From Gammaproteobacteria bacterium (lineage in GTDB: Bacteria; Pseudomonadota; Gammaproteobacteria; Eutrophobiales; Eutrophobiaceae): a stretch of 64,000 nt of DNA. The translations under genes were made by a program, and so were the position numbers. Position 1 is the stretch's first letter. The number at the start of each line of letters is the position of its first letter. The notes beneath the pieces were generated by a model that saw only the letters and a program-made list of their open reading frames with translations, did no database searches and had not been told where the DNA came from. The stretch is from NCBI GenBank assembly GCA_965215365.1, contig CBDCDS010000003.1, forward strand, positions 2,560,001 to 2,624,000. Direction: 5' to 3'. This document shows, piece by piece, positions 22,958 to 62,574 of the stretch.

Positions 22958-23438
22958 TGCTGCCGTGGTGCTGGAACAGATTCTAGGCATTAAACAACGC
23001 CGTGCAGACGCGACCGTCAGGACCGAACTGCAATCCAGGCTGGAGCTGGAGCAGGCCGCCGGCGCGCTGCGCGCCGAGCAGCAACGCAAGCAGGAGTACC
23101 AGGACTGGTCGGTCGGCGAGCGCCGGCGTCTGTACACGGAGTTGCAGGAGCACGGCGCCGTGACGTACAACGAGCTGATGCAGTGGAACGCGCAAGTGGC
23201 CGACATCAAACAGGGACTGCTGGATATTGAGGCCGGTATCATGCGGCTGGAGCAGGAGCGTCAGCAAAAAATGGACGCGCACCAGACGGCGCTGACGGCC
23301 AGACACGAGGCCCGCCGGCAGGTACTGAAATTTACCGAGCTGGTGGACGCGCAACGGTTCGACGCCCTGCTCGCGCGGCAGGCCCGCGAAGAAAAGGAAC
23401 TGGAAGATTTTCGACGCCCTGAGTCTCATAGCTATTGA
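22947..23438 (+). CDS. sctO: T3SS stalk protein SctO (YscO), start uncertain
   Basis: Coiled coil directly after sctN ending KFTELV...EEKELEDF; last codons overlap IS-end scar. Confidence 0.75.
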
Positions 23439-23447
23439 ACCTGGACA
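23419..23447 (+). mobile_element. Isolated right-end scar of the IS481-family element
   Basis: CTGAGTCTCATAGCTATTGAACCTGGACA vs IS end CTGAGTCTCATATGTATTGAACCTGGACA (27/29). Confidence 0.85.
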
Positions 23448-23452
23448 CACTG

Positions 23453-23481
23453 TTGACAACCACTCGGATTTGTTGTACTAT
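23453..23481 (+). promoter_or_regulatory. Sigma70 promoter of sterol operon
   Basis: TTGACA-N17-TACTAT, 45 bp before first sterol gene. Confidence 0.75.
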
Positions 23482-23526
23482 CGCCTCGGTCTCAATTAAC
23501 AAAACAGTCAGAAGCGAACTCCTAAC

Positions 23527-24627
23527 GTGCCCACCGAAACATCAACCGCCTCAGCTGCGCCGCCGGTTTTCCTCACCGGCGCGGCCGGTCATGTCGGCGC
23601 CAACCTGTTGCGACGCTTGCTTGATGATGGCGTGCGCGTGCGGGTATTGCTGCGCCATGAGGACAATAACGAGGGCCTGGAAGGTCTTGACGTTGAACGC
23701 GTGTACGGCGATATCCGTAATCTCGATGAGACCCGGCGCGCGCTGGAGGGTTGTCAGGGTGTTTACCACGTTGCCGCCAAAATTTCGACCATTGAAGGCA
23801 ATCTGGCGCACCGCCGGGAAATATACGAGTGCAATGTGATCGGTACCCGCAACGTGCTGCAGGCGGCACGCGAAACTGAAGCCGGCCGGGTGGTAGTAAC
23901 CGGCTCGTTCAGCGCCGTGGGATACGATCTGGACAACCCGTCCGCACCCGCGCACGAAAACATGCAGTTCTACCCCATGGAGCGCACCATGCCTTACGAG
24001 CGCAGCAAGTCATTGGTGGAGCATGAGTGCTGGCGCGCCGCGGCCAGGGGCCAGGATGTGGTCGTCGCCACCTGTTGCGCAGTAGTTGGCGGCGCGGATT
24101 TCTTCCCGTCGCGCCTGGGCCGCACCTTGTGCGACTATTCCCACGGCAAACTGCGCGCGTATATCGAGGGCGGTTTCGAGTTTGTCGCAGCCAGAGACAT
24201 CGTAGCAGGGCATGTGTTGTGCATGCACAAAGGACGCTCCGGAGAAAAGTATATCTTCAGCAGCGAATACAAGACCATCTCCGAGATCGTGGCCATGTTC
24301 GAAGAGGTGTCGGGCGTGCCGCAACCCGCGCGCCGGATTCCGTCGCCGGTGATGCTGGTCTTCTCAGAGGTGGCCAGCTTTTACCTGAGTCGCGCGCACC
24401 CGGACTTCCCCCAGCGCTTTACGCCCGGCGCCATCCGCCTGCTGCGTAAGCGCCTGCATGCCAATACCAGCAAGGCCCGACAGGAATTGGGCTACCAGCC
24501 CACCAGCATCCGGGATGCCATGCACGAGGCCTACGCGTTTCATTATCACCAGCGCAAGGTGATTACCAATCCCGCGGCGCGACCGCCGCGCGCCAACGGC
24601 GCGGAATCGACGCATGGGGCGCAATAG
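23527..24627 (+). CDS. NAD(P)-dependent SDR/3-beta-HSD family, SdmB-like sterol C-4 decarboxylase/reductase
   Basis: TGAAGHVG Rossmann motif, YERSK catalytic YxxxK; adjacent to Rieske oxygenase in sterol cluster. Confidence 0.7.
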   Translation: MPTETSTASAAPPVFLTGAAGHVGANLLRRLLDDGVRVRVLLRHEDNNEGLEGLDVERVYGDIRNLDETRRALEGCQGVYHVAAKISTIEGNLAHRREIYECNVIGTRNVLQAARETEAGRVVVTGSFSAVGYDLDNPSAPAHENMQFYPMERTMPYERSKSLVEHECWRAAARGQDVVVATCCAVVGGADFFPSRLGRTLCDYSHGKLRAYIEGGFEFVAARDIVAGHVLCMHKGRSGEKYIFSSEYKTISEIVAMFEEVSGVPQPARRIPSPVMLVFSEVASFYLSRAHPDFPQRFTPGAIRLLRKRLHANTSKARQELGYQPTSIRDAMHEAYAFHYHQRKVITNPAARPPRANGAESTHGAQ

Positions 24628-24669
24628 GGCGGGTGTGCCATTCATTATCAATGCGCTTGAGAGGACAAT

Positions 24670-25812
24670 ATGATAAGCTTGGAAAACACACAAGTCACCG
24701 CTGTTGACGACTCCATGCCGGCATCGGAGGCGCCGCCTGGCTTCGCTGACGGCGGCACCCTGCGACAACAATCACGCGCGGCAGGGATGGACCCGGATTA
24801 CTGGTACGCGGTGGAAGAGGTGCGTAATGTCAAGCCGGGGCAGGTCGTGGAAGTCGTCTTCTGGAAACGTTCCATCGCTCTGTTTCGTACCGACGAAGGT
24901 TCATTTCACGCAGTTGAGAACCGCTGCATTCATCGCCAGCTGAAGCTGTCCCTAGGCAATGTGGAAGGTTGTCGGCTGGTATGCGCCTATCATGGCTGGC
25001 AGTATGATAAAAACGGCCGTTGTGTCGAAACCACGCACAACCGCTTCGGCAAAGAGCTCCCGGAACTTGGATTGAAGACCTACCCGGTGCAGGTGCGTTA
25101 TGGCCTGGTATGGTTGTTTCCGGGCGACCCGGCACAGGCGCAGCAACGCCAAATCCCGGAAATTCCTGAGCTGGAAGGGCCCGATCGCTGGGCCTGTGAG
25201 CCGCTGGTTCTCAATTTTTCGGCGCACCACTCGATGGTCATCGACAATGTCAGCGACTTTACCCACGCTTGGCTGCATCGCCGCTACAAGCCGTTTGAAC
25301 AAGGCGCAGTACTCACCGAGCACGAGGTCGTCGGCGACAATGTGCACCTGTCTTACGACACCAAGGTCGGACGCGGGCGCATCTCCGGACTGTTTGTCGA
25401 TCATGAGCGCCTCAATACCAACCACATGAAGCTGTGCTACCAGTACCCCTACCAGTGGTCCAACACCGATGACGAGATCAAACACTGGTTATTCGTACTG
25501 CCGATCGACGAGCGCACCACCCGCTCTTTCTTCCTGTTTTACTTCAAGTCGCTGAAAATTCCATTGCTGCCGATACGCATCCCCCGGATTGCCATGGAGG
25601 CGGTGATAAAGATCTCAAACCGCATACTGATCGGCCCCCTGCTGGACCAGGACCGGGTGGCGGTGGAGGCCGAACAGGAAGGTTATGACAGCCACTGGCA
25701 CGCCCGTTCCGTCGAGTATAACCCGGTGGTGCAATCGTTCCAGCGTGTGACCGTACGCAAGTGGCGAGAATACCTGGAGCGGACCTCGAGCAACGGCAGT
25801 GCTGATGCCTGA
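24670..25812 (+). CDS. Rieske oxygenase, SdmA-like sterol C-4 methyl oxidase
   Basis: CIH...CAYHGW Rieske motif, DNVSDFTHAWLH mononuclear-iron motif, GAGGA RBS; context. Confidence 0.75.
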   Translation: MISLENTQVTAVDDSMPASEAPPGFADGGTLRQQSRAAGMDPDYWYAVEEVRNVKPGQVVEVVFWKRSIALFRTDEGSFHAVENRCIHRQLKLSLGNVEGCRLVCAYHGWQYDKNGRCVETTHNRFGKELPELGLKTYPVQVRYGLVWLFPGDPAQAQQRQIPEIPELEGPDRWACEPLVLNFSAHHSMVIDNVSDFTHAWLHRRYKPFEQGAVLTEHEVVGDNVHLSYDTKVGRGRISGLFVDHERLNTNHMKLCYQYPYQWSNTDDEIKHWLFVLPIDERTTRSFFLFYFKSLKIPLLPIRIPRIAMEAVIKISNRILIGPLLDQDRVAVEAEQEGYDSHWHARSVEYNPVVQSFQRVTVRKWREYLERTSSNGSADA

Positions 25813-26878
25813 GGCGTTCTCGACACTGTCAGGCGGCGACCTGGTGGCGGCAGCGCTGATGCTGTTGGCGTTCGTCGGCTTGTTGTTCCTAGGTTCAATA
25901 CTACTGCCGGGGGCGCAGGTGGAAGGTCGCCAAAGCAATTACCAGCTGAACGGACTGGTCCTGTTCCTACTGAGCCTGCTTGTGGTCGCGATGGCTCAGG
26001 TTTTCGGCTGGTTTTCCCTGACCATACTGCATACCCACTTTGTTGAGTTGTTCATTGTAGCCAATATCTTTGCTTTTGCCGTTTCCGGCTGGCTGTACCT
26101 GCGCGGCGCCAGCGCGGCGGACCGGCCGGCGGGGTTTTTACGTGGGTTTTTCTTTGGCCGGGAACAGGACCCGGCCTGCTTCGGGGTGGACCTGAAACTG
26201 TTCAGCTACCGCCCTTCCCTGATCGGGCTGGCGCTGCTCAACCTGTCGTTTGCGGTCGTGCAGTATGAAACTTATGGGACGCTGACTCCGGCCATGGCGT
26301 TGTATCAGGCATTTACCTTGCTGTATATATTCAACTACTTTCAGTTTGAACACGGCATGATATACACTTGGGATATCATCAGCGAGCGGCTTGGCTGGAT
26401 GCTGGTCTGGGGCGACTATGTGTTGGTGCCATTTTTCTATTGCATCGCCGGCTGGTGGCTCATCGACGCGCCGGCGGCGCTGTTGTCTCCGGCCGCTGCG
26501 GCCGGAATTGTCGCGTTGTTCCTGTTCGGATTCTGGCTGTTCCGCGGTGCCAACGAGCAAAAACATCGGTTCAAGCAGGACTCCGCTACCAAAATCTGGG
26601 GCAAGCCGGCGCAGACGCTGGACGGACGCTTGCTGGTGTCCGGTTTCTGGGGCATCGGACGGCATCTGAACTACACCGGCGAGATCTGCGTGTATCTGGC
26701 GTTTGCGCTCACTACCGGGTTCGTATCTTGGATACCGTTCCTGTTGCCGCTGTGGCTGGCCTGTCTGCTGGTGCACCGGGCCTGGCGCGATGAACAGCGC
26801 TGCCACGCCAAGTACGGGGAGCTGTGGGGGCGCTACAAGCAGCGCGCCCGTTTTTCCATGGTGCCATTTGTGTATTAA
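25805..26878 (+). CDS. ERG4/ERG24-family sterol reductase (likely Delta14-reductase)
   Basis: DLKLF, WDIISERLGWMLVWGD, LLVSGFWGIGRHLNYTGE, HRAWRDEQRCHAKYG. Confidence 0.9.
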   Translation: MPEAFSTLSGGDLVAAALMLLAFVGLLFLGSILLPGAQVEGRQSNYQLNGLVLFLLSLLVVAMAQVFGWFSLTILHTHFVELFIVANIFAFAVSGWLYLRGASAADRPAGFLRGFFFGREQDPACFGVDLKLFSYRPSLIGLALLNLSFAVVQYETYGTLTPAMALYQAFTLLYIFNYFQFEHGMIYTWDIISERLGWMLVWGDYVLVPFFYCIAGWWLIDAPAALLSPAAAAGIVALFLFGFWLFRGANEQKHRFKQDSATKIWGKPAQTLDGRLLVSGFWGIGRHLNYTGEICVYLAFALTTGFVSWIPFLLPLWLACLLVHRAWRDEQRCHAKYGELWGRYKQRARFSMVPFVY

Positions 26879-26881
26879 CCG

Positions 26882-28240
26882 ATGAGCAACGTCCCCGCCC
26901 CTCAACTGTCCGGTAGCTGGCCGTTGCTCGGTCACCTGCCAGAGTTCTACCGGGAGCCGACGGTCATGCTGAGTCGGGCCTGGGGTGAGCATGGTGAACT
27001 GGCGCACTTTCGCTTAGGTCCGCGCGCGTTCGTCCTGTTTACAGGGCCTAAAGCGCATGACCATTACTTCCGCGCGCCCGAGGAGCAGCTCGACCCTAGG
27101 GTAGTGTACCAATTCACCGTACCCATCTTCGGGCGCGGCGTAGCCTACGATGTTGCGCCCGAGCTCATGTCCGAACAAATCGGCTTCCTGTCCCCGTTAT
27201 TGCGGGAAGCGTCCATGCGCAACTATATCAACATCATGTTTGACGAGGCGCGCGCCTTCGCGTCCGCCCTCGGCACAGAGGGCATTATTGATCTGCCGCA
27301 CGCGCTCAATGAACTGACCGTCAAAATTGCCAGCCGTTGTCTGCTTGGCGAGGAGGTGCGGGCGCAGGTGGATACAGGTTTTGCCGAGACCTACCACGAG
27401 CTGCAGAGCGGCATTAATGTGCTGGGCTTCTTCTTCCCCAAGGCGCCGATAGCGGCGCACCGGCGACGCGATCGGGCGCGGCGTGAAATAGCCAACACTT
27501 TTAGCGGGATTATGGCTGCGCGCAGACGTTCCGGCGCCACGCCGGAGGATTTCATGCAAGCGCTGATGCAAGCGCGTTACAAGAGTGGGCGCGCCTTGAG
27601 TGATGAAGAGATTACCGGCATTTTGCTTACGGTGTTGTTTGCCGGCCAGCACACCAGCGCCGTGCTCGGAGCCTGGACCGGCCTAGAATTAATGCGCGCG
27701 CCGGACTATCTGCAGCAGGTCCGGGACGAGTTGCAGGAAGTCTATACTTCGACCGGCGAGATGAGCCTTGACAGTCTGAAAAAACAGCCCAAACTGGAAA
27801 ACGCGGTGCGCGAGTGCGAACGGCTGCACCCGCCGCTGATCATATTGATCCGTAAAGTGTTGCAACCTATGCACTATGCCGGTCAGAGCGTGCCGGCCGG
27901 CACGCTGGCCATGGTGTCGCCAGCCGTTTCGCACCGGTTGCCACATGTGTTTCCCAACCCGGAACGCTTTGCCCCGGAGCGCTTTGCGCCCCCGTCAAGC
28001 GAACACAAACAGCACCACTACGCCTTGATTGGCTTTGGCGGCGGCAAACATCGTTGCGTGGGGGAACATTTTGCTTATATGCAACTCAAGGCGCTTTGGA
28101 GCGTGCTGTTGGACCGCTTCGATTTCCAGCTGGAAGGCGCTTTTCCCGCCCCCAACTACCGTAGTTGGGTCACCGGGCCCGTGGAACCTTGCCGGGTACG
28201 TTACCAACGCCGCGCGCAAACAAGCGTTTTCCGTCAATGA
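26882..28240 (+). CDS. cyp51: Sterol 14-alpha-demethylase CYP51
   Basis: YQFTVPIFGRGVAYD, LFAGQHTS I-helix signature, ExxR, FGGGKHRCVG heme motif. Confidence 0.93.
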   Translation: MSNVPAPQLSGSWPLLGHLPEFYREPTVMLSRAWGEHGELAHFRLGPRAFVLFTGPKAHDHYFRAPEEQLDPRVVYQFTVPIFGRGVAYDVAPELMSEQIGFLSPLLREASMRNYINIMFDEARAFASALGTEGIIDLPHALNELTVKIASRCLLGEEVRAQVDTGFAETYHELQSGINVLGFFFPKAPIAAHRRRDRARREIANTFSGIMAARRRSGATPEDFMQALMQARYKSGRALSDEEITGILLTVLFAGQHTSAVLGAWTGLELMRAPDYLQQVRDELQEVYTSTGEMSLDSLKKQPKLENAVRECERLHPPLIILIRKVLQPMHYAGQSVPAGTLAMVSPAVSHRLPHVFPNPERFAPERFAPPSSEHKQHHYALIGFGGGKHRCVGEHFAYMQLKALWSVLLDRFDFQLEGAFPAPNYRSWVTGPVEPCRVRYQRRAQTSVFRQ

Positions 28241-31200
28241 GCAGCCTTGCCGCCGAACGCTACGATGTCGCCATCGTCGGCGCCGGTCCAGTAGGTAGCT
28301 TGTGCGCGCTGGCCCACGCGCAGAAGGGCGCGCGGGTGGCGTTGCTGGAAGCCAACCCCAAGGCCTCGCTGCGCTTGGCCGGAGAATGGCTGCATCCGCC
28401 GGCCGTGCGTATGCTGCGAGCAGTCGGCATAGCAATCGACGAACAGCCGCGCAGCAGTACGGGAGAGGGGTTTGCCGTGTTCCCGGAAGACGGCTCCGAG
28501 CCGATAGTCTTGCCTTATCCGAAGGGTGAATGTGGGGTAGCCTGTGATCACACCGCGTTGGTGGCGCGCCTGCATGAGGCGGTGGAGGACGAACCCGATA
28601 TCGATTTTTTACTTCATGCCAAAGTACGCGAAGTTGAAGATGGGCAACTCGCGTTCGCCCGCAATGGCACCTTGGAGACCCTGGCGGCAACGAGTATCGT
28701 CGGCGCTGATGGACGCTCCTCGGTGGTGCGCCAATCACTGGGGTTGCCGGGAAAGCGGATCCCCTGCTCGCGCATGGTGGGGGTGGTCGTTGAGGATGCG
28801 GAGCTACCCGTAAAAGGTTACGGGCACGTTTTGCTTGGGGCGCCGGGGCCAATTCTCGCTTATCACACCGGCGCGCGCCACGTCAGAATCATTGCTGACA
28901 TTCCGCTGGACCACTGGAGCCCCAAGGACCGGGCTAACCTGCTGTCGGAATCGTATGCCGAACTGCTGCCGGAGGCGCTCAAGGCCGGATTTATAAAAGC
29001 AGTGCAGTCAGGAAAATTCCATGCCGCGGCCAATGAACTCAGACCGCGCGTCAGTTACGGCACCTGGCAGCGAACGCTAATCGGAGATGCGGCCGGTCAC
29101 TACCACCCCCTGACCGCAGTGGGCATGACCCTGGGTTTTGGCGATGCCCTGATGCTCGCCAAGTGCCAGAACTTCAATGAATTCAAGCGTCAACGTTTTC
29201 GCGATATTCGCGCGCCGGAGCTGCTGGCCATGGGTATGTATGAGGTATTTGCCGATCACCGGGGCGAGGCCGTGGCGCTCAGGACCGCCATGTACCAGAA
29301 CTGGTTAAAACTGCCCATAGTGCGCGACCGCACCATGCGTTTGCTCGCCTGTGAGGATCGTTCCATAGTGAGGCTCGGCCTGGCCACCTGCGTGACGGCG
29401 CTGCGCGCGCTGACGACACAGACCCCGCACACCTTAAACCGGCTGGCCTGGCGCCGTACCGGTGACGTCATGGGCGCCTTGGCCTCGCGGGTGGTATGGT
29501 TCCTGCACGGCGTTGACATTCTGAGCAAGTTGCGGCGTAACGGCGACAACATGGAAAACAGGTTCCGTGAGGTATTGGCGCGTTCATTCCTGATTTCCGT
29601 GCCTCCCGAAAAAACCGGCGTCGAGCCAGCCGCGCCCAAGGATACAATATCTTTTGACGCGAGCCCGGCCTTGCACAAAGCCGGCGCACGCCTGCTGAGT
29701 TTACAGGGTGATGACGGCGCCTGGGAAGGGGAGATGGTATGGTGCCCCATGCTCACTGCGCAATACGTGTTATTGCAGCACCTCCTAGAGCAACCCATCG
29801 AAGCCGGCCGGCGCCGGCGGATACTGCGTTCGTTTGCGTGTTCCCGTCTGGACAACGGGCTGTGGAGTTTGCATGAACACCCACCCGCCAACCTGTTTGT
29901 CACCACCCTGGTTTATGTTGCCGCGAGATTGCTTGGCCTTGAGCAGGATGATACGCTGCTTAAGCCGGCGCAACGTTTTCTGCAAGCAGAAGGCGTGCGC
30001 GCTATCCCCAGCTGGGGCAAGTTCTGGCTGGCGCTGCTCAACCTGTATGACTGGCGCGGGGTGAATGCCATCCTGCCGGAGTTGTGGGGACTGCCGCGCC
30101 GACTGCCATTGCATCCTTCCAACTGGTACTGTCATACCCGGCTGATCTATATGGCCATGGCCTCGGTTTATGCGCACCGCTATCAGGCCCCCGTCACGAC
30201 CACCATTGCCGCGCTGCGCGAGGAGCTGTATCCACAAGGGTATGAGCAGGTTGATTTCGTCGCCGGCCGCAACGACTTGCGGGCCGGTGACCTGTTTGCC
30301 CGCCCCGGCGTCTGGTTACGCGCCGGCTACGCCTTGACCCGTCTGTACGAGCGCTACCATAACAAGCGCTTGCGCAACCAATGCCTGGAGGCGCTGCGCG
30401 GGCAGATATCCTGGGAATTACAGAGTAGCAGCCATACCAGCATCTCACCAGTGAGCGGTTTTCTCAACATCCTGGCCTTGTGGTTGCGCGATCCGGACGA
30501 TGCCGACTGCCGTCAGGCGCTGGCAAAGCTGGACGACTGGTTCTGGGAAGATGAAGAGCACGGCGCGCGGGTGACCGGTGCCCGCAGCAGCTCCTGGGAT
30601 ACCGGCTTCGCCCTGCAAGCGCTAGCCACGGCGCCGGATGTTGCAGGCGCGCCCAAAGCCATGCGCAAAGGCGCCGAGGCCCTGCGCAACCAGCAGATCC
30701 AGGTCAGTTTTGAGGGCTATAAGGAGGCCTACCGTAATGACCCCCAAGGCGGCTGGTGCTTCCCCGGAGGCTGGCATGGTTGGCCGGTGAGCGACTGCAC
30801 AGCAGAGGCGGCGCTGGGGATAATGGCGGTGCAGGGCGCTGCTACCAACCCGGAAATGCTGGCCGCTGCCGCACGCTTTATGTTGCGCAGCCAGAATCGC
30901 GACGGTGGCTTTGGCAGCTACGAGGCACAGCGTTCCCGTTTTGATCTGGAATGGCTGAATCCGGCGGAGATGTTTGGCGAGTCCATGACTGAGCACTCCT
31001 ACGTGGAGTGTACCGCCTCGTGCATGGCCGCGCTGGCCGCGTGCCGGGAGCACGCGCCGCAAAGCCTGCCTGAAGCAGCGCCGGACGCCATGTCCCGGGC
31101 CGAGTCGTGGCTGCGTAATACGCAGTCCAGCGACGGTTCCTGGCGTGGCGTCTGGGGCGTACAGTTCATCTATGGCACCTTGTTCGGCATCCGCGGGCTG

Positions 31201-31632
31201 ATTGCCGCCGGGGCGCGCCCGGGCGACCCGGCGTTGCGTCTGGCCTGCCGCTGGCTGCTGGAACGTCAACGGGAGGACGGCGGCTGGGGCGAAAGTCTGC
31301 ATGGTTGCCTGAGCGGCGAGTACGTTCCACATGAGGAAAGCCAGATTATCCAGAGCGCCTGGGCGCTGATTGCACTGCTTGAAGCGGGCGAATCAAACTG
31401 GCCCATGATTGTGCGCGGCATCCGTTATCTGGCCGCCACTCAAAATGAGGACGGAAGCTGGCCCAGGCAGGACATGGCTGGCGTGTTTTTTCGTACCGCA
31501 ATGTTGGATTACGTACTGTATCGGCAGTACTTTCCTCTGCACGCGCTGGGTTTGTACGAACGGCGGCGGCGGGCGCGGGCGGAGCTGGCGCAGTCGCTCA
31601 ACCCATTACCAAAACCTGATGGTGTTACCTGA
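28237..31632 (+). CDS. Squalene epoxidase - oxidosqualene cyclase fusion (1131 aa)
   Basis: ATGA overlap with CYP51 stop; N-half GAGPVG, GEWLHP, VGADG, GDAAGHYHPLTAVGMT (squalene epoxidase); C-half QW repeats, WYCHTR, VSDCTAE (OSC, not the SHC DxDD). Confidence 0.92.
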   Translation: MSSLAAERYDVAIVGAGPVGSLCALAHAQKGARVALLEANPKASLRLAGEWLHPPAVRMLRAVGIAIDEQPRSSTGEGFAVFPEDGSEPIVLPYPKGECGVACDHTALVARLHEAVEDEPDIDFLLHAKVREVEDGQLAFARNGTLETLAATSIVGADGRSSVVRQSLGLPGKRIPCSRMVGVVVEDAELPVKGYGHVLLGAPGPILAYHTGARHVRIIADIPLDHWSPKDRANLLSESYAELLPEALKAGFIKAVQSGKFHAAANELRPRVSYGTWQRTLIGDAAGHYHPLTAVGMTLGFGDALMLAKCQNFNEFKRQRFRDIRAPELLAMGMYEVFADHRGEAVALRTAMYQNWLKLPIVRDRTMRLLACEDRSIVRLGLATCVTALRALTTQTPHTLNRLAWRRTGDVMGALASRVVWFLHGVDILSKLRRNGDNMENRFREVLARSFLISVPPEKTGVEPAAPKDTISFDASPALHKAGARLLSLQGDDGAWEGEMVWCPMLTAQYVLLQHLLEQPIEAGRRRRILRSFACSRLDNGLWSLHEHPPANLFVTTLVYVAARLLGLEQDDTLLKPAQRFLQAEGVRAIPSWGKFWLALLNLYDWRGVNAILPELWGLPRRLPLHPSNWYCHTRLIYMAMASVYAHRYQAPVTTTIAALREELYPQGYEQVDFVAGRNDLRAGDLFARPGVWLRAGYALTRLYERYHNKRLRNQCLEALRGQISWELQSSSHTSISPVSGFLNILALWLRDPDDADCRQALAKLDDWFWEDEEHGARVTGARSSSWDTGFALQALATAPDVAGAPKAMRKGAEALRNQQIQVSFEGYKEAYRNDPQGGWCFPGGWHGWPVSDCTAEAALGIMAVQGAATNPEMLAAAARFMLRSQNRDGGFGSYEAQRSRFDLEWLNPAEMFGESMTEHSYVECTASCMAALAACREHAPQSLPEAAPDAMSRAESWLRNTQSSDGSWRGVWGVQFIYGTLFGIRGLIAAGARPGDPALRLACRWLLERQREDGGWGESLHGCLSGEYVPHEESQIIQSAWALIALLEAGESNWPMIVRGIRYLAATQNEDGSWPRQDMAGVFFRTAMLDYVLYRQYFPLHALGLYERRRRARAELAQSLNPLPKPDGVT

Positions 31633-32666: not shown

Positions 32667-33226
32667 AATACGTATTTGACCCTGAAGTCCTGCGCGAGGT
32701 TGCGCAAGCCCACCTAGAGCTGCCGCTGGAGCAGATGATGCTGGCAATTACTGAGGATCTTGCCGAGCGTTATCCAGGCCGGATCCAGCTCGAGCGTGAA
32801 TGGGTCTTCAACAACGCTGGCGGCGTCATGGGGCAGTTCACTATCCTGTACGCTTCGTTATCGGAGTACCTGATCTTCTTCGGCACGCCCATCGGTAGCG
32901 GCGGGCATACCGGGCGCTATCATTTTGCCGAGGATTACGCATTCGTCTTAGATGGTGAGTTCTGGTATTTTAATCAGGGCGATACTCAAAGACAGGAGTT
33001 CCGTAAAGGCGATTTCGTGCATCTGCCGCAAGGCGCGGCCATGGGTTTTTGTATGGTGGATCATGCCTGGATACTGGAATATGTACGCGGCCCGGTAGTT
33101 ACCATGCTCCCGTTCGGACTCGCCGATACCTTATTCAGTACGCTTGACTACCGCACTTTGTTTCGTACCTTCCGCCTCTACGGTGGACATGTATTGCGTT
33201 CGCTCAGGAAGCCGCCTGGGCGGTAA
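32663..33226 (+). CDS. C-8 sterol isomerase (ERG2/sigma-1 receptor family)
   Basis: WVFNNAGGVMG, LYASLSEYLIFFGTPIGSGGHTGRY, WILEYVRG..MLPFG. Confidence 0.9.
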   Translation: MKYVFDPEVLREVAQAHLELPLEQMMLAITEDLAERYPGRIQLEREWVFNNAGGVMGQFTILYASLSEYLIFFGTPIGSGGHTGRYHFAEDYAFVLDGEFWYFNQGDTQRQEFRKGDFVHLPQGAAMGFCMVDHAWILEYVRGPVVTMLPFGLADTLFSTLDYRTLFRTFRLYGGHVLRSLRKPPGR

Positions 33227-35417: not shown

Positions 35418-35502
35418 TGCCAGCTTGCCCGGTTCCGGCGTTTTACGTATTATCATCATTTTACCACCTTGGAAATCAGCTCATGTTACAACGGAACGGG
35501 TG

Positions 35503-39688: not shown

Positions 39689-39692
39689 GGGA

Positions 39693-41774: not shown

Positions 41775-43028
41775 TCAGCCATACATCGGAAACCGCTTAC
41801 ACAAGGCCTGCGCTGCGCTTTTGACTCTGCCCAGTAGCGCGTCGTCACCCATGTTATCGATCACATCGCAGATCCAGTTGGCCACTTCGGCCGCCTCGGC
41901 TTCCTTGAAACCACGGGTGGTAATCGACGGCGTGCCGATGCGGATGCCGCTGGTCACAAATGGCGAGTGCGGGTCATTCGGCACGGCATTCTTGTTGACG
42001 GTGATATGCGCCCGATCCAGCGCTGCATCCAGCTCCTTGCCGGTGATGCCCTTGCCGATCAAGCTGACCAGAAATAAGTGGTTGTCGGTGCCGCCGGAGA
42101 CAATATCCACACCGCGCTGCATGAATACCGAGGCCATGGCGCGCGCATTCGCGATGACCTGTTGCTGGTAGGCTTTGAACGCCGGCTCCATGGCTTCCTT
42201 GAACGCCACGGCCTTGGCCGCGATGACATGCATCAAGGGGCCGCCCTGGTAGCTGGGAAACACGGTGAAATTCAGTTTTTTCTCTATCTCCGGGTTGGCC
42301 CGGGCTAGGATCAGACCGGCGCGCGGGCCGCGCAAAGTTTTGTGGGTGGTGGTGGTGGTGACATCCGCAATCTGCACCGGGCTGGGATACAAACCGGTGG
42401 CGATCAAGCCGGCGACATGGGCAATATCAGCGACCAGATAGGCACCCACTTTATCGGCGATCTCCCGGAAGCGCGGCCAGTCCAGCTTGCGTGAATACGC
42501 GGAAAACCCGGTCATAACCAGCTTCGGCCGGTGTTCCAGGGCCAGCTGTTCTGCCGCGTCATAATCGATCTCGCCGGTGTCCGTATTCAGGCCGTACTGC
42601 ACCGCCCGGTAAACGCGCCCGGAGACATTGACCGAGGCGCCGTGGGTCAGGTGCCCGCCGTGCGCCAGACTCATGCCCATGATGGTGTCGCCCGGCTGGC
42701 ACAGTGCCAGATATACGGCACCGTTGGCCTGGGAGCCGGAATGCGGCTGTACATTGGCATAATCGGCGTCGAACAACTGTTTGGCGCGGTCAATGGCAAG
42801 CTGCTCGACCACATCCACGTACTCACAGCCACCGTAGTAGCGCTTGCCGGGATAGCCCTCGGCATACTTGTTGGTCAGCACCGAACCCTGCGCTTCCAGC
42901 ACCCTGGGGCTGACGTTATTTTCCGACGCAATCAGTTCGATGTGTTCTTCCTGCCGGGTGCGCTCGCCTTGCATAGCCTGATAGAGCGCCTCGTCGTAAC
43001 CGGCAATGTTCATGTTGTTATTGAACAT
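41775..43028 (-). CDS. glyA: Serine hydroxymethyltransferase
   Basis: [33 protein letters not shown]. Confidence 0.98.
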
Positions 43029-43108
43029 GCTTCACCCTGTCTTTGAGATTGAAACCCTATTATAAAGTATTATGGGGACATCCGTGGCACCTGAGCAGAG
43101 GTGACAGG

Positions 43109-44326
43109 CTACTCATGCTTCTGCAAGACTAGGCGGTAGCATTGCAGGCGGTTGCGCAGGAAGCAATGGGCGGAACCCCACAGGTAAAGGCGGAAACGGC
43201 GGTAGTCGGCTTCACCGAATTTGTTGATGATGAATTCGCGGTTGGAGTCGAAGCGCTGAGCCCAGTGGCGAAACGTCAGGTAGTAACTGTACCGGTCATC
43301 CCAAACTCCTTTGAGGTCGAAGGGCTTGAGCGCCAGCGCGCGCAGGAAATCGTGCAGAACGAAGAAAGAGTGGTTACCCGGATAGATGTGTCTGGTAATA
43401 AACGATGACTTCTGGTATTTGCGCGGGATGGCGCTGGCATCCAGAAACACGTAGCCGCCGGGCTTGAGCAGGCGGTCAAAACAGGCCAGTACCGCGTCAT
43501 AATTCGGCAGGTGCTCCATCACCCCGAGAATGGCAATCGCGTCGAATTGCCGGTCGGGGCGATACTCCAGCACATCCACCAGCTCGGTGGTTATCGGCAG
43601 GTCTGTCTGCGCAACCAGTTCCTGCATGAACTTCAGGGATTGTTCGGCAATGGTAACGCCGGTCACCCGTATGCCCCGACGCGCCGCGTATTCCGCAAAC
43701 GAACCCCAGCCCACACCTATGTCCAGCACCTCACTGCCGGGCGTCATCCGGCACTGTTCGAGAATGAATGCCATTTTGCGGCGTATCGCATCGGACAACA
43801 GCTCGTCGGGAGTCTCGAATATACCTTGGGTATAGCAACGGAATTCCTCGTCCAGGAATGAGAGGTAGAAGGAATGGTCGCGTTCATAGTGCGCGCCGAT
43901 CGCCTTCCGGTTGACGGCAACCTGTCCCAGCAGCAACGGCGACAGCGCGCGCCACAGCCGCATCAACAGGTGGCGATCCTGCAAGTGTGTGCGCAAGTCA
44001 TAGACTTCGATGATGTTCCCCTGCACATCAAACCAGCCGTTGATGTAGGCGTTGGCGATGACCCCCTCGTCAAACGTGGCAATGGCGCGCACCGCCCTGG
44101 GGTCGGCGATATCCAGCCTGAAACCGGGCGCGCCGGCGCCGATATGATGCTTGCTGCCATCCGGCAACACCAGCTCGAAACAGACCGGGCTGGTGCCGAA
44201 GCGCCGGGACATCAACTGTACCAGCCGCGCTGCTTGTTGTTGCAAGCTACTGTTTGCCGTTACCGGCAAGGCGCGCCCGCCGGATTGTTGAGAGTTATCA
44301 ACGGCATCCTCTACAATATGTGCCAT
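43109..44326 (-). CDS. Cyclopropane-fatty-acyl-phospholipid synthase-like SAM methyltransferase
   Basis: IGAHYE, VLDIGVGWGS, GVMEH, FITRHIYPG, FRLYLWGSA. Confidence 0.8.
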   Translation of the reverse strand: MAHIVEDAVDNSQQSGGRALPVTANSSLQQQAARLVQLMSRRFGTSPVCFELVLPDGSKHHIGAGAPGFRLDIADPRAVRAIATFDEGVIANAYINGWFDVQGNIIEVYDLRTHLQDRHLLMRLWRALSPLLLGQVAVNRKAIGAHYERDHSFYLSFLDEEFRCYTQGIFETPDELLSDAIRRKMAFILEQCRMTPGSEVLDIGVGWGSFAEYAARRGIRVTGVTIAEQSLKFMQELVAQTDLPITTELVDVLEYRPDRQFDAIAILGVMEHLPNYDAVLACFDRLLKPGGYVFLDASAIPRKYQKSSFITRHIYPGNHSFFVLHDFLRALALKPFDLKGVWDDRYSYYLTFRHWAQRFDSNREFIINKFGEADYRRFRLYLWGSAHCFLRNRLQCYRLVLQKHE

Positions 44327-44417
44327 ACTATACCGAACCCTTTGTTGCTCTAGGTTAGCCCGCAGGGGGCGCCCCAAGGAAGGGGCGCATCACAAAATCC
44401 GCCGCGATCTTCGCATC

Positions 44418-44440
44418 ACTTAGTGAGATATGCGGGTTAG
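44418..44440. repeat. 23-bp dispersed repeat, copy 2
   Basis: Matches 9295-9317. Confidence 0.7.
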
Positions 44441-44467
44441 AGTATTGCAAACGGGTTGCTATGACAA
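44439..44467 (-). promoter_or_regulatory. Putative sigma70 promoter of cfa-like gene
   Basis: TTGTCA-N17-TACTCT on minus strand, 5 bp from the IS right end. Confidence 0.55.
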
Positions 44468-44481
44468 CCCCGTGTCCAGGT

Positions 44482-45507
44482 TCAATACATATGAGACTCA
44501 GAGGCAGGCTGTGTGAGTTGTTGATAATACTCCATTGGGGTTAATAAACCAATACCGTCATGCGGGCGGTAGGTATTGTAGTATTGCTGATACTCTGCCA
44601 GTTTGCGGTTGATGGCGGCCACGGTCAGTGGGCCCTCGTAGAACGGATAGAACTCATAGCGGCTGGTGGCATTGGCGCGTTCTACACAGCCGTTGTATTC
44701 GGGTTTTTTCGGGGGCAGCACGTACAGGGGGATTCCTAAGTCCTGGCAAGCCTGCTCGAACTCATCTCGGAACTCCGAGCCGCCATCGACCTGGATAGAA
44801 CGGATGGGAAACGGCGCCTCACCGAGCAGCGCTTTTAAGAAGCGCCGGGCATTGCCACTGGTGGCCCGACTGTAGGCTCGCAGCGCACTCCATTTGCTCA
44901 CCGGACAGACGGCCTTGAACTCCTTCACCGTGATGCCGTCCGTGAAGCCGACACTCATGTGGTCTATCTGCATCAACTCCCCTGGCGCCTTAGCCTTCAT
45001 CCCGTAGCGCCAGCGCTTGGCATGATGGGTAAACGCCCGGCGGCGCTTAGGCTTCACCCGGCCATAGTAAAACGCCACCGGCTTGACCCGACCCAGCCGC
45101 ACCAGCTTCGCCACGATGCGCCCGACCGTACTCTCGCTCAAAGTCCAGCCCTGCTCGCGCACCCCCACCCGCCAGAGCTTACGCTTACCCCATAACGGAT
45201 AACGTTGGCGAAGGTGCAAGACCTGCTGCTCGTGCTGGCGCGTCCATTGCGGCACACGCCGCCGCCGCGGCGCACGAGAGCCACACCCCAGACCCTTCAG
45301 CCCATGTTCACGATACCGCTTCAACCAACGGTAGTAGGTCGCCCTCGACCAACCTACTGCTGCCAGTGCCGTCGCCTCACCACACCCATCCTCGCGTAAC
45401 GTCGCAACCAATTCCAACTGCTTCAAACGACCGCGCGCGTCAGCATCGGTAGTATCATCGACGCGCCAACTGCGATATGATTTCACCCGCAGGCTTTTGA
45501 TCTGCAT
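44482..45507 (-). CDS. IS481-family DDE transposase
   Basis: HTH (SRATYYRW), PGELMQID, IQVDGGSEF, NGCVER, YNTYRPH; AGGAGG before ATG 45507. Confidence 0.92.
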   Translation of the reverse strand: MQIKSLRVKSYRSWRVDDTTDADARGRLKQLELVATLREDGCGEATALAAVGWSRATYYRWLKRYREHGLKGLGCGSRAPRRRRVPQWTRQHEQQVLHLRQRYPLWGKRKLWRVGVREQGWTLSESTVGRIVAKLVRLGRVKPVAFYYGRVKPKRRRAFTHHAKRWRYGMKAKAPGELMQIDHMSVGFTDGITVKEFKAVCPVSKWSALRAYSRATSGNARRFLKALLGEAPFPIRSIQVDGGSEFRDEFEQACQDLGIPLYVLPPKKPEYNGCVERANATSRYEFYPFYEGPLTVAAINRKLAEYQQYYNTYRPHDGIGLLTPMEYYQQLTQPASESHMY

Positions 45508-45570
45508 CGGGTAGTCCTCCTGTGTCAATTAGTTGAGATTAATTCACACACAGACTACCCGATTTCTTTA
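45476..45570 (+). ncRNA. Candidate IS antisense RNA (RNA-OUT-like) over transposase RBS/start
   Basis: TATGAT at 45476-45481, then stem ATCGGGTAGTC (45506-45516)/GACTACCCGAT (45553-45563) followed by TTCTTT; inference only. Confidence 0.4.
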
Positions 45571-45621
45571 TCTAAAGAGTCTCACTTGTTTCTGAACCCG
45601 GACACCCCGAAAGCATTTTCC

Positions 45622-46341
45622 ATGAACCATTCCCAAGATAATATCGACCCGAATAATATCAGTCCGGCAGAGGTTGCCAAATTCGAGCGCCTCGCGCAGC
45701 ACTGGTGGGACGCCTCCGGGCCCATGCAAACCCTGCATGACATCAACCCGGCGCGGCTCGCCTATATCAGCGCGCAGGTGTCGCTGCCAGGTCGGCGCGT
45801 GCTGGATGTGGGTTGTGGCGGCGGCATCCTGACGGAAGCTCTGGCGCGCCAGGGCGCGAATGTACAGGGACTGGATGCCGGCGCGGAGATCATCCGGGTG
45901 GCGCAGCAACACGCGCTGGACACCGGCCTAGAGATAGCCTACAGCAACGCTGCACTGGAGGATTTTGTCGGCAACAATAGCGACAATTTTGAGGTCATCA
46001 CCTGCATGGAACTGCTGGAACATGTGCCGGATCCGGAACAGTTATTGCGCGCCTGCGGGCGGGCACTGGCGCCCGGCGGCCACCTGTTCCTGGCCACCAT
46101 CAACCGCAACCTGAAATCCTATGCCAGCGCTATCCTGGGCGCGGAACGACTGTTACGGCTGCTGCCCGCTGGCACCCATGACTACGCCGCCTTCATCCGC
46201 CCGGCGGAGCTGCAACGCTGGCTGCGCCGCGCCGGTTTCAAGACGCTGGATATCAGCGGCATGTTGTATGTCCCCGGCCTCAGGTACTGCGCCCTGATTG
46301 ACGACCCGGGCGTTAATTACCTGGTTCATGCGCGGCGATGA
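45622..46341 (+). CDS. ubiG: Ubiquinone biosynthesis O-methyltransferase
   Basis: EVAKF..LA..WWD, LHDINPARL, VLDVGCGGGIL, CMELLEHVPDP. Confidence 0.95.
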   Translation: MNHSQDNIDPNNISPAEVAKFERLAQHWWDASGPMQTLHDINPARLAYISAQVSLPGRRVLDVGCGGGILTEALARQGANVQGLDAGAEIIRVAQQHALDTGLEIAYSNAALEDFVGNNSDNFEVITCMELLEHVPDPEQLLRACGRALAPGGHLFLATINRNLKSYASAILGAERLLRLLPAGTHDYAAFIRPAELQRWLRRAGFKTLDISGMLYVPGLRYCALIDDPGVNYLVHARR

Positions 46342-47003
46342 ACAAGCACATCAAATGCGTGCTGTTCGATCTGGACGGCACCCTGGTGGACACCGCCCCG
46401 GACATGGCTTTTGCGCTGAACCAGACCTTGCTCAGGCATGGCCGGGCGCCGTTGCCGGCGGCAGTGATTCGCCCCAGCGTTTCCATGGGCGGCGTAGCGC
46501 TGGTGAAACTGGCTTTTCGGCTGGACGAGGCCGATCCGGCGTTTACCGGGCTGCGTGATGAATTTCTGACAATCTACCGGGCCAACCTGTGCCGGGACAG
46601 CCGTCTGTTTCCCGGCATGGAACAGGTGTTGAGCACACTGGAGCAAAGCGGCCTTAGCTGGGGCATTGTCACGAACAAACCAGGCTGGCTGACCCAGCCG
46701 CTGATGCAGGCGTTGGCGCTGGATACCCGCGCCCCCTGCATCGTTTCCGGCGACACGTTGACACAACGCAAACCGCACCCCGCACCCCTGCTCCATGCCT
46801 GCCGACTGCTGCGCCGGACACCGGAGGAAACCGTCTATGTCGGTGACGACCGACGCGACATGCAGGCCGGCAACAGTGCTGGCACCGCCACGCTGGCCGC
46901 AGCCTATGGCTATATCGGCCCCGGCGAAGACCCGCACAGCTGGGGCGCGGACGGCTTGCTGGAGCATCCGCAACAAATCCTGCCCTGGCTTGGTCGGCAA
47001 TGA
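46338..47003 (+). CDS. gph: HAD phosphatase (phosphoglycolate phosphatase/MupP-like)
   Basis: FDLDGTLVDT, VTNKP, KPHPAP, YVGDD; ubiG-gph synteny. Confidence 0.85.
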   Translation: MNKHIKCVLFDLDGTLVDTAPDMAFALNQTLLRHGRAPLPAAVIRPSVSMGGVALVKLAFRLDEADPAFTGLRDEFLTIYRANLCRDSRLFPGMEQVLSTLEQSGLSWGIVTNKPGWLTQPLMQALALDTRAPCIVSGDTLTQRKPHPAPLLHACRLLRRTPEETVYVGDDRRDMQAGNSAGTATLAAAYGYIGPGEDPHSWGADGLLEHPQQILPWLGRQ

Positions 47004-47013
47004 GCCCAAGGCA

Positions 47014-48963: not shown

Positions 48964-49024
48964 AGTCCTGTACTTTATACCTCAGTGCAGCCCAGGGCAA
49001 GACCAGTGAGGGTGCAGCGGTCGC

Positions 49025-60623
<11,599 letters not shown>

Positions 60624-60711
60624 GCGGCTGTGCGGCTGTGCGGCTGTGCGGCTGTGCGGCTGTGCGGCTGTGCGGCTGTGCGGCTGTGCGGCTGTGCGGC
60701 TGTGCGGCTGT
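60624..60711 (-). repeat. Microsatellite (ACAGCCGC)x11 abutting adhesin start codon
   Basis: GCGGCTGT x11 on plus strand between CAT 60621-60623 and CAT 60712-60714. Confidence 0.97.
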
Positions 60712-60712
60712 C

Positions 60713-60770
60713 ATTATGGCATTTCCCCCGAGTTTGTCAAGCAGTTTTTGGATTTTTTTGGTATTTTTTT
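60713..60770 (-). promoter_or_regulatory. Sigma70 promoter of adhesin with extended -10 and A-rich UP element
   Basis: TTGACA (60740-60735)-N16-TGcCATAAT (60718-60713), A-tracts upstream. Confidence 0.65.
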
Positions 60771-60874
60771 CAGTAAGATAGAACGACCAAGGCGACACCG
60801 ACGCCAATGATTGTAGTCAGGATTTGAACATGAGTTTAGCATCAGTATAGCACAGTGTCAAGCGCGCCCCAAAA

Positions 60875-60910
60875 ACATGGCCACGTACATGGCCACGTAC
60901 ATGGCCACAT
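60875..60910. repeat. 12-bp tandem repeat ACATGGCCACRT x3
   Basis: Seen directly; each unit is a near palindrome. Confidence 0.85.
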
Positions 60911-60977
60911 ATCGACTTCACGGATGACCGGGATGCTTGTCTGTTCACCGTAACCGTTCACCGCAAACAGGCCGCGC

Positions 60978-61751
60978 TCACTCAAACACCCGTGGCACAA
61001 ACCCCTCCTCATTAACGATACTGGCGCTGTCGCCGGTGGCGCGGATGACGAACAGGCCCTGGCGTTCTGCATGTGTTTTGGCAGCCTTGCTGGTTTTGAG
61101 GTAGGCCATCGCCCCGTAAATCGTCTTGCCCCGATGTTCCGGTTCGTAATACGTGTATTTGAGCAGTTTTTTCAGAAAGTGTTTGATGTCCGCCGCACAC
61201 AAGGTGGTCTTCACTTCCACCACCACCACTTCGACCCCGTTAATCGCCACAATGTCAAACTCAAAGTCCTCGCCGTTGCGCTTGCCATAAGGCCTGGGAT
61301 GGATGCGATCTACCAGAATATCCCGGCGTTGCAGCAGGGCTACGAGGTCACCCTCGACCAGGCTTTCCATGAAGTCACCCCAACGGTTGTCAAACCGGCC
61401 TTGCATCCTGTTCAGGCTTTTGTCCAGGCGCCGGTCGGTTTCCCGGGCATTTTCTTTCATGCGCCGGTCGGTTTCCTTCATCTGCTGGCTGGTCTCCTTC
61501 ACCAGCCGACTGGTCTCCTTCACCAGCCGGCCGGTTTCCCGGGCATTTTCCTTTATGATCCGGTCGGTTTCCCGGGCATTTTCCTTTATGATCCGGTCGG
61601 TTTCCCGGGCACGTTCTTTTATGCGTTGGTCGGTTTCTTTTGCTTGTTCCTCCAGTAGCCGGGCGATTTCCTGCTGCGCTGCGCGTAATTCCTGCATGCC
61701 AGCCCAGAACGCCTCAGGCGTGGCGTGTTCATGCGGTGTTTTGTTGTCCAT
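60978..61751 (-). CDS. Coiled-coil repeat protein with PD-(D/E)XK-like C-terminal domain (DUF3782-like)
   Basis: ENARETDRIIK 11-aa repeats; WGDFMESLV, EFDIVAING..VVVEVKT; GGAGG RBS. Confidence 0.75.
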   Translation of the reverse strand: MDNKTPHEHATPEAFWAGMQELRAAQQEIARLLEEQAKETDQRIKERARETDRIIKENARETDRIIKENARETGRLVKETSRLVKETSQQMKETDRRMKENARETDRRLDKSLNRMQGRFDNRWGDFMESLVEGDLVALLQRRDILVDRIHPRPYGKRNGEDFEFDIVAINGVEVVVVEVKTTLCAADIKHFLKKLLKYTYYEPEHRGKTIYGAMAYLKTSKAAKTHAERQGLFVIRATGDSASIVNEEGFVPRVFE

Positions 61752-61951
61752 GACAGATACCTCCGTATCGGTTAGGTTGATGGGTTTGATAAAGCGGGCG
61801 GCAGCGAATGCAATCGAACCGCTCGCTCACTGCAGCATTGTACAGGGATGCAGTGGGTGGTGCAAACTGCTGCTGCTCATTTCGGAAAGTCTTGCCTCCC
61901 GGGGAAGGCAGGGCAGGCCCGACAAAGTATGATGCGGTTCATAATCGCCAC

Positions 61952-62539
61952 TGTCCGGGTTCAGAAACAAGTGAGACTCTTTAGATAAAGAAATCGGGTA
62001 GTCTGTGTGTAAAGTGATTTCGATTAACTTACACAGGAGGACTACCCGATGCAGATCAAAAGCCTGCGGGTGAAATCATATCGCAGTTGGCGCGTCGATG
62101 ATACTACCGTGTCCAGGTTCAATACATATGAGACTCAGAGGCAGGCTGTGTGAGTTGTTGATAATACTCCATTGGGGTTAATAAACCAATACCGTCATGC
62201 GGGCGGTAGGTATTGTAGTATTGCTGATACTCTGCCAGTTTGCGGTTGATGGCGGCCACGGTCAGTGGGCCCTCGTAGAACGGATAGAACTCATAGCGGC
62301 TGGTGGCATTGGCGCGTTCTACACAGCCGTTGTATTCGGGTTTTTTCGGGGGCAGCACGTACAGGGGGATTCCTAAGTCCTGGCAAGCCTGCTCGAACTC
62401 ATCTCGGAACTCCGAGGAGTATCAGCAATACTACAATACCTACCGCCCGCATGACGGTATTGGTTTATTAACCCCAATGGAGTATTATCAACAACTCACA
62501 CAGCCTGCCTCTGAGTCTCATATGTATTGAACCTGGACA
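61952..62539 (+). mobile_element. Rearranged/nested IS481 remnant with 6-bp target duplication CGCCAC
   Basis: Left end 61952-62109, inverted right-end piece 62110-62416, direct right end 62417-62539; CGCCAC at 61946-61951 and 62540-62545. Confidence 0.9.
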
Positions 62540-62545
62540 CGCCAC

Positions 62546-62574
62546 TTGACGCTTGTTCAGAATATCAGTAACTT
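62546..62574 (+). promoter_or_regulatory. Putative sigma70 promoter of ilvI
   Basis: TTGACG-N17-TAACTT upstream of GTG 62611. Confidence 0.55.

Follow-up and report, generated by a model that had tools for sequence, protein, structure and literature searches.

In yeasts, the integrase-fold enzymes of the retrotransposons Ty3 and Tf1 are tethered to the transcription machinery, and integration takes place at start sites or promoters or just upstream of them. In bacteria, insertion sequences (ISs) of the IS481 family are about 1–1.3 kb long (ISfinder ranges), carry imperfect terminal repeats beginning TGT, and generate a short target duplication. The Mutator-like elements TnGBS, ISLre2, and the ISKra4 group insert, according to the available part of their description, in one orientation 15–17 bp upstream of the −35 hexamer in sigmaA promoters, and it is their right repeat that adjoins the promoter (PMC3942029). 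The same part of that article reads the targeting as gene avoidance and terms it a "unique insertion specificity"; its supplementary tables may list further promoter-targeting families. For IS481 of Bordetella pertussis, the accessible text gives a 6-bp target site, NCTAGN (PMC3053399), and elements of the IS1202 group are described, in the portion of the source at hand, as inserting in a single orientation 5 bp away from the site that XerC binds at dif/pdif (PMC10132070). Here we analyze an IS481-like element of 1,132 bp in a gammaproteobacterium of the Eutrophobiaceae (assembly GCA_965215365.1), copies of which lie in a 64,000-nucleotide stretch of DNA that we call the window (contig CBDCDS010000003.1, positions 2,560,001 to 2,624,000). 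On the sequence evidence set out below, this element is very probably active and chooses sigma70-type promoters as its targets, in a fixed orientation.

Right ends of the element and the adjoining promoter motifs

The element is bounded by terminal inverted repeats TGTCCAGGTTCAATA (right) and TGTCCGGGTTCAGAA (left), the right repeat ending ...TTGAACCTGGACA. The 15-mer TGTCCAGGTTCAATA occurs four times in the window, at 23433–23447 (−), 44473 (+), 62110 (+), and 62525–62539 (−), where shuffled sequences lead one to expect 0.03 occurrences. Read outward from the element, the junctions are CACTG-TTGACA-N17-TACTAT at 23447, CGGGG-TTGTCA-N17-TACTCT at 44473, CGCCAC-TTGACG-N17-TAACTT at 62539, and, within another IS copy, CGGTAG-TATCAT-N17-TATGAT at 62110. 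A −35-like hexamer begins at +6 or +7 from the tip and a −10-like hexamer at +29 (23447 and 44473) or +30 (62539 and 62110); a first-pass annotation of this DNA had listed these junctions and hexamer positions, and our rereading of the sequence bears them out as written. Its further remark, that the spacer before the −35 hexamer consists of exactly the duplicated bases, proved accurate for both window insertions that have a target duplication (CCCCG and CGCCAC).

Three of these junctions face identifiable genes. At 23419–23447 (+) lies a solo right-end remnant of 28–29 bp (tip 23447; 26 of its 28 inner bases match the IS), followed at 23453–23481 (+) by the putative promoter TTGACA-N17-TACTAT, which has 10 of 12 matches in a strict promoter scan and lies upstream of a NAD-dependent epimerase/3-beta-HSD-like gene at 23527–24627 (Pfam Epimerase 3.5e-31, 3Beta_HSD 1.1e-18). 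The full 1,132-bp copy at 44473–45604 (−), with its right end (the transposase 3′ end) at 44473 and its left end at 45604, faces a putative promoter at 44439–44467 (−; −35 TTGTCA at 44462–44467, 17-bp spacer, −10 TACTCT at 44439–44444) in front of a CMAS (cfa-like) gene (Pfam CMAS 2.3e-41). Its CCCCG duplication is found at 44468–44472 on the promoter side, where it adjoins the −35 hexamer, and at 45605–45609 on the left-end side. The third putative promoter, TTGACG-N17-TAACTT at 62546–62574 (+), stands upstream of a TPP enzyme gene beginning at 62611 that resembles the acetolactate synthase large subunit (ilvI-like; Pfam TPP_enzyme_M 3.7e-52), and the insertion before it is bracketed by CGCCAC at 61946–61951 (left) and 62540–62545 (promoter side). 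With hexamers 16–18 bp apart that point at genes, and with Pfam-identified genes behind these three window sites, the flanks can be regarded as putative sigma70-type promoters.

The 2.73-Mb genome holds 26 full copies of the IS at 97.1–100% identity by BLAST, with the 44473–45604 copy as reference; seven other copies are 100% identical to it. Distinct exact ends number 46 on the right and 40 on the left. Each flank was scored, counting outward from the IS end, for TTG at +5 to +7, for TAnnnT at +28 to +31, and for both with a 16–18-bp spacer. Right ends had TTG in 29 cases, TAnnnT in 36, and both in 24 (52%; binomial p = 2e-48), against 5, 1, and 1 of the 40 left ends, whose flanks showed no outstanding offset. 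Both elements stood in register at 0.1% of 100,000 random genome positions (TTG 5.1%, TAnnnT 2.8%), at 0.3% of 100,000 random positions outside open reading frames (ORFs; TTG 5.4%, TAnnnT 4.6%), and at 0.3% of 41,620 positions 40–200 nt upstream of crude genes (TTG 4.9%, TAnnnT 4.1%). A stricter promoter-scan rule gave 19/46 right ends, 1/40 left ends, and 0.28% of non-ORF positions. Because the 46 right flanks form 45 clusters at 60% similarity, they can be treated as independent.

Removal of three IS-derived flanks left 43, with TTG in 29, the −10 in 35, both in 24, and at least one element in 40. Among 28 additional near-matches to the 15-mer (1–2 mismatches), a set that includes chance matches and left ends, both elements were present in nine. 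An apparent exception at C3 821258 has, by eye, a duplicated tip, and its 6-bp duplication TTTCTC adjoins TGGACA-N17-TACTAT. The first-pass annotation had proposed comparing the flanks of all copies with random positions, and the expected enrichment was found (24/46 versus 0.1–0.3%). Its wording that every right end sits before a promoter was too strong, since both elements accompany 24 of 46 ends and at least one accompanies 40 of the 43 non-nested ends; its central claim, oriented insertion just upstream of sigma70-type promoters, is borne out genome-wide, by IS-free promoters in congeners, and in about 40 other records, as described below. There is a positional and orientation bias of 1-bp precision, with a single orientation relative to a two-part promoter.

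One could suppose that insertion is random or weakly biased and that selection purges harmful insertions, leaving those before promoters. Only about 2–4 of the 46 right flanks fall in crude ORFs, which cover 88% of this gene-dense genome, and purifying selection would also give such a distribution. The in-register pattern, by contrast, occurs at only 0.3% of non-ORF and gene-upstream positions, and selection cannot yield a 1-bp register, a single orientation (left ends, 1/40), or duplications abutting the −35. Moreover, the 14 youngest copies, at least 99.7% identical to the reference, already show the pattern (both elements in 7, at least one in 13), and a different IS of this genome, exposed to the same selection, lacks the signal. 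For that IS, which served as a negative control, 18 and 11 ends gave at most one flank at any offset and no promoter association. We therefore regard selection on random insertions as very improbable. The control, a multicopy element, measures about 2.28 kb, is bounded by terminal repeats GTAACTACTCGC, and has target duplications of 7–8 bp; it is located at G000:C3:222968–225251 and 13 more places, and its 14 near-full copies are more than 99.8% identical.

Of separate note, 20 of the 46 exact right ends (G000:C3) are solo remnants, some only 17–30 nt long, directly beside an intact promoter. Deletions that took away the IS body together with upstream DNA but spared the promoter could account for them.

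Insertion geometry, empty sites, and ends-only derivatives

When the flanks are aligned on the −10 hexamer (n = 37), T, T, and G occupy −23, −22, and −21 in 33, 27, and 21 cases, which is the classical 17-bp arrangement; the spacers measure 17 bp in 17 flanks, 18 bp in 5, and 16 bp in 2. Target duplications of 4–6 bp (mostly 5 bp) accompany 18 of the 26 full copies and have no common sequence (AAGCC, CTATC, CGGGG, TAGCGC, and others). Relative to the best −35, they abut it in 11 of 18 and lie no more than 1 nt away in 16 of 18. The −35 begins at +7 next to each of the five 6-bp duplications and at +6 next to 6 of the 11 5-bp ones; as the start of the −35 tracks duplication length, the fixed point is the bond just upstream of the −35.

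The −10 hexamer is more than a companion of the −35. In non-ORF DNA of the same genome, TAnnnT is in place after 5.8% of TTGnnn and 23.6% of TTGACA occurrences, compared with 24 of 29 IS flanks, and it is in place in 12 of the 17 flanks that lack TTG. A preference for the −35 only, combined with intergenic survival, is therefore insufficient, and the −10 is an independent requirement beyond what the −35 brings.

Mini-elements of 49–50 bp, consisting only of left and right repeats, are found at G000:C3 positions 764924–764972, 821258–821306, 1880311–1880359, 2382357–2382405, and 1319099–1319148. Four of these five share the same internal junction, which suggests a miniature inverted-repeat transposable element moved in trans, and four of the five are placed before a promoter in the register of the full IS. 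The transposase and the two ends are what determine placement, as the 49-bp ends-only derivative is placed alike.

Related genomes offer a view of the sites without the element. The ilvI-like promoter TTGACG-N17-TAA(C/G)TT is conserved and IS-free in 5/5 same-genus genomes examined, which differ entirely from one another upstream of the −35. The same-genus genome G006 contains the exact empty site of the 44473 copy, with the left flank, a single CGGGG (one copy of the duplicated CCCCG), and TTGTCA-N17-TACTCT; between G006 and our genome, the first 35 nt past the IS end (CGGGG, −35, spacer, −10, and one more base) are 100% identical. Judged from these alignments, the targeted promoters predate IS insertion. 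Elsewhere in the genome, one right flank precedes tRNA-Lys, which starts at +47.

The empty sites also bear on a different proposal, that the promoter-like sequence belongs to or is created by the element, as an outward or hybrid promoter, and that nothing is targeted. A promoter scan does propose TGGACA (the IS tip)-N18-CAGAAT at 62534–62563. Against this, the same promoters stand IS-free in congeners, which refutes the proposal for the main signal; the flanks are all different (45 clusters of 46) and are located beyond the target duplication; and TAnnnT at +17 to +20 occurs in 0/46 flanks, on which ground we rejected the IS tip TGGACA as the −35 of a hybrid promoter. We give the proposal practically no credence.

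Several features at and around the insertions merit description in their own right. The segment 61952–62539 before the ilvI-like promoter is a rearranged composite of three IS fragments: a left-end fragment (IS positions 1–158) of a first copy at 61952–62109 (+), a 307-nt right-end fragment of a second copy, nested inverted in the first, at 62110–62416 (−), and a 123-nt right-end fragment of the first copy at 62417–62539 (+; tip 62539). From this arrangement, a second copy appears to have inserted inverted into the first, with part lost afterwards. The nested copy faces, and adjoins, an antisense promoter-like site of the first copy's 5′ region, TATCAT-N17-TATGAT at 62075–62103 (−), which points out of the left end; this is a single case. 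The same site in the full copy lies at 45447–45480 (+) and points across the transposase start codon and ribosome-binding site; it might serve as a promoter for an antisense RNA or as an outward one. A divergent methyltransferase-like ORF, starting 14–19 nt beyond the left end, lies in its direction in the 44473 copy.

At this same locus (window 45586–46341), the intergenic space was tiny before insertion: in G006 about 14 nt separate the ATG of the divergent gene from the CGGGG before the −35, and the 44473 IS has therefore cut that gene off from its former promoter. Between the targeted promoter and the CMAS gene lies a repeat of about 82 bp (44358–44439). A query containing it had 51 matches in its own genome and found matches in every same-genus genome searched as well; the repeat is absent at this locus in G006, and public contigs break there. 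Contigs from four DNA sequencing runs on window positions 43000–47000 end at or near the IS borders and the 82-bp repeat, and no clean joint across the IS was seen among them. Farther along the window, 54408–56402 holds six tandem copies of a 339-bp unit (63–94% identical to the reference copy, five of them at least 88%), and 49247–50506 holds a run of 27-bp-spaced repeats; both probably lie within a large repetitive gene.

The transposase and its relatives in other bacteria

The transposase ORF of the full copy (44482–45528, −) encodes 348 amino acids from a TTG or 341 from an ATG at 45507, the latter preceded by AGGAGG. The gene reads toward the target gene, and its stop codon TGA lies inside the right inverted repeat, with 9 nt from the stop codon to the IS tip. 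This one ORF of 341–348 amino acids, without a frameshifted second ORF, comprises an N-terminal helix-turn-helix (HTH) and a DDE integrase (rve) core (Pfam HTH_32 1.4e-13, rve_3 1.3e-12, rve 6.8e-06, also HTH_23), and the residues D183, D242, and E277, which do not vary in the alignment, line up with those of canonical IS481 members. The best NCBIfam model is IS481 (NF033577) at 180.7 bits, below the cut-off of 224; IS3 is next at 87.8, and IS630, IS21, and others are further models listed. A FastTree phylogeny of 58 rows (rows with stops, shorter than 300 amino acids, or identical were left out; midpoint root, no outgroup) places 54 rows of the IS group on one side of a branch with 100% local support and four annotated IS481-family transposases on the other. 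The assignment to IS481 made in the first-pass annotation is thus upheld by the best-scoring model and weakened by the sub-cut-off score and the separate branching; by sequence, the IS group would be either a deep subgroup of the IS481 family or a sister family. The clade differs from the canonical rows in features of its own: most members are extended at the N terminus, the first HTH contains an insert of 4 residues, and a basic insert precedes the catalytic core. A structure predicted from a 5-row alignment was a poor model (mean pLDDT 62.9, pTM 0.34).

Relatives came from a protein scan (25 loci) and from a scan with a 5-row alignment (A1) over one genome per species (80 loci). We used 97 loci, all 80 of the second scan and 17 of the 25 from the first, omitting seven that overlapped second-scan contig ranges and one short match (L025). 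These yielded 87 distinct right flanks from about 40 records, after exclusion of six loci without a right-repeat-like motif, one flank that was too short, and three duplicate flanks; right ends were placed by a fuzzy motif. The transposases are 40–88% identical to ours, and the hosts, as named in the record titles, comprise Gammaproteobacteria (many sponge-associated), Alphaproteobacteria, Terriglobia and other Acidobacteriota, Dehalococcoidia, Bacteroidota, Babeliales, and Myxococcales.

The same bases recur at the same positions in these flanks, with T, T, and G at +6, +7, and +8 in 65, 61, and 64 of 87, and T, A, and T at +29, +30, and +34 in 45, 51, and 49. Both elements are in register in 32/87 (binomial p = 3e-69) and at least one is present in 70/87, while control windows 60–900 nt further on in the same loci have both in 0.13% of 10,291. 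Divided by transposase identity, both elements occur in 6/12 flanks at 60–88%, 13/40 at 50–60%, 8/25 at 45–50%, and 5/10 at 40–45%, and promoter-adjacent copies are found in all sub-branches of the IS-group tree. TTG starts at +6 in 44/87, and the −10 starts at +28, +29, and +30 in 9, 35, and 10 flanks, a spread that points to anchoring on the −35. In a plasmid collection, the nearest matches are from Thermaceae (about 40–43% identity), annotated only as "integrase core domain-containing protein"; on Allomeiothermus silvanus pMESIL01, the −10 is at +29/+30 in 4/4 right ends and TTG at +6 in 3/4, and a Thermus thermophilus plasmid remnant has TTGACA at +6. Promoter-directed placement is common to a deep, multi-phylum group of related transposases. 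At E ≤ 1e-20 there are 2778 homologues among 5.8 billion proteins; nearly all of the 120 listed are unnamed metagenome proteins, and this may explain why the behavior has gone unnoticed. A search with the L094 protein at E ≤ 1e-40 found no further relative in 400 other Bacteroidota genomes, leaving two single-copy loci only in that phylum.

A number of observations weigh against promoter targeting. By the simple test, 22/46 right flanks in our own genome and 55/87 in the relatives lack one or both elements, and 17/87 of the latter have neither; the relatives' totals include every right end called, even those with 7–8 mismatches, whose positions may be wrong. The strict scan called only the 23453 site among the window's three promoters, the other two having 3/6 matches in the −10. 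A co-oriented gene start within 300 nt, as judged from crude ORF calls, is found at 29/46 right ends and 19/40 left ends and so barely distinguishes them. Three Spongiihabitans copies (L026, L028, and L030) and both right ends (2/2) in Meiothermus taiwanensis show no promoter signal. The Octadecabacter relative likewise does not fit the promoter offset. Among canonical IS481-family elements, ISVch1 and those of Moraxella, Arthrobacter, and Chondrinema showed no obvious promoter at the offset, by eye and in one copy each, which is too few to generalize.

Target capture and comparison with described elements

On our reading, the element integrates in one orientation, with its right inverted repeat beside the promoter and its transposase gene reading toward it, and a staggered cut of 4–6 bp falls immediately upstream of the −35 hexamer. 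The core −35/−10 and the downstream gene are left intact, and everything upstream of about −41 is displaced by 1.1 kb; in this the first-pass annotation, which had the core promoter retained and upstream sites displaced, agrees with the junctions, where the −35 and −10 are kept and DNA upstream of about −41 has moved. The benefit to the element would presumably be a safe harbor in gene-dense genomes.

What the transposase recognizes is less certain. The bases that are favored, TTG in the −35 and T, A, and the final T in the −10 hexamer TAnnnT, are those of sigma70 holoenzyme recognition, as are the tolerated spacers of 16–18 bp. On account of these sigma70-like bases and spacers, and because the −10 matters at a distance of more than 20 bp from the cut, we judge capture through the polymerase likelier than direct reading of the DNA. 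Given targeting, we somewhat favor a captured target that is a promoter occupied by RNA polymerase holoenzyme and not naked DNA, in which case the signal would be sigma region 4 on the −35, DNA distortion or a bend there, or both. A predicted complex of the transposase with RpoD residues 525–613 (score 0.00, mark 0.32) speaks neither for nor against binding.

Alternatively, targeting may be real and the transposase may read the DNA itself, one of its HTH domains binding the TTGACA-like hexamer at the cut and the −10 being sensed through sequence or shape, without RNA polymerase. Consistent with this, insertion is anchored on the −35, TTG lying at +6 in half of the relatives' flanks (44/87) and the duplication abutting the hexamer; the right repeat of the IS itself holds similar hexamers, TTGAAC and TGGACA; the motif is alike in hosts of several phyla; and the clade's basic insert and N-terminal extension could bind DNA. 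It is harder to reconcile with a −10 that is needed far beyond the −35 effect (24/29 versus 5.8–23.6%) and kept in 12/17 flanks without TTG, with favored bases and a spacer tolerance that match sigma70 recognition, and with the relatives' right repeats, which are mostly CTGAAC instead of TTGAAC. We consider direct reading possible but rather doubtful. The fuller proposal, that a deep, multi-phylum group of IS481-like elements docks on RNA polymerase holoenzyme at sigma70 promoters and cuts at the upstream edge of the −35, we advance tentatively.

Placement of this kind has consequences for the host and uses for the investigator. Each insertion severs a promoter from its upstream activator and UP sites, and insertion at promoters goes some way toward explaining why symbiont genomes that are small and gene-dense can bear dozens of IS copies. 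For uncultured bacteria the copies have a practical value, since each of them flags a probable promoter. If docking on RNA polymerase is true, real promoters would be naturally labeled by these copies, and the enzyme could serve to direct insertions to promoters. Cultured Thermaceae carry members of the group, and since their RNA polymerase is structurally well known, the mechanism is open to study there.

We found no report of promoter targeting by IS481-like elements in the full-text literature, a search whose scope excluded ISfinder, TnPedia, and supplements. The accessible text of a 2026 preprint remarks that IS481-family elements often adjoin coding sequences and notes nothing more (10.1101/2025.07.22.666184), and a 2022 survey, in the part available, offers orientation statistics and no promoter targeting (PMC9208149).

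The element resembles IS481- and ISVch1-type elements in its single HTH and DDE ORF, its length of about 1.1 kb, its TGT repeats, and its short duplication of 4–6 bp. It differs from annotated IS481-family transposases in having only about 30% identity to them, a separate branch, and clade-specific inserts. Set against the portions of the sources summarized at the outset, it also departs from IS481 proper, with its NCTAGN target, in that its duplications have no consensus and lie beside promoters. As with the IS1202 group, it would be a protein's binding site, and not the bases that are duplicated, that determines the landing place, although the two cases involve different families, host sites (a recombination site versus a promoter), and host proteins. 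Ty3 and Tf1, which are eukaryotic and rely on Pol III or Pol II factors, share only the integrase fold and serve as an analogy; were docking on RNA polymerase true, the present elements would be a bacterial counterpart of their tethering, evolved independently of the Mutator-like TnGBS and ISLre2. Like TnGBS, ISLre2, and the ISKra4 group, the IS inserts oriented, at a fixed distance upstream of the −35, and with its right repeat proximal to the promoter. Unlike them, it stands 5–6 bp and not 15–17 bp from the −35, with the duplication touching the hexamer, and in place of a Mutator/IS256-like transposase it encodes one with only HTH and rve-type Pfam domains. We accordingly rate the group as a second, independent transposase lineage with promoter targeting and a geometry of its own. 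As promoter-directed transposition was previously described from one transposase superfamily, promoters would be a recurrent safe harbor for mobile DNA.

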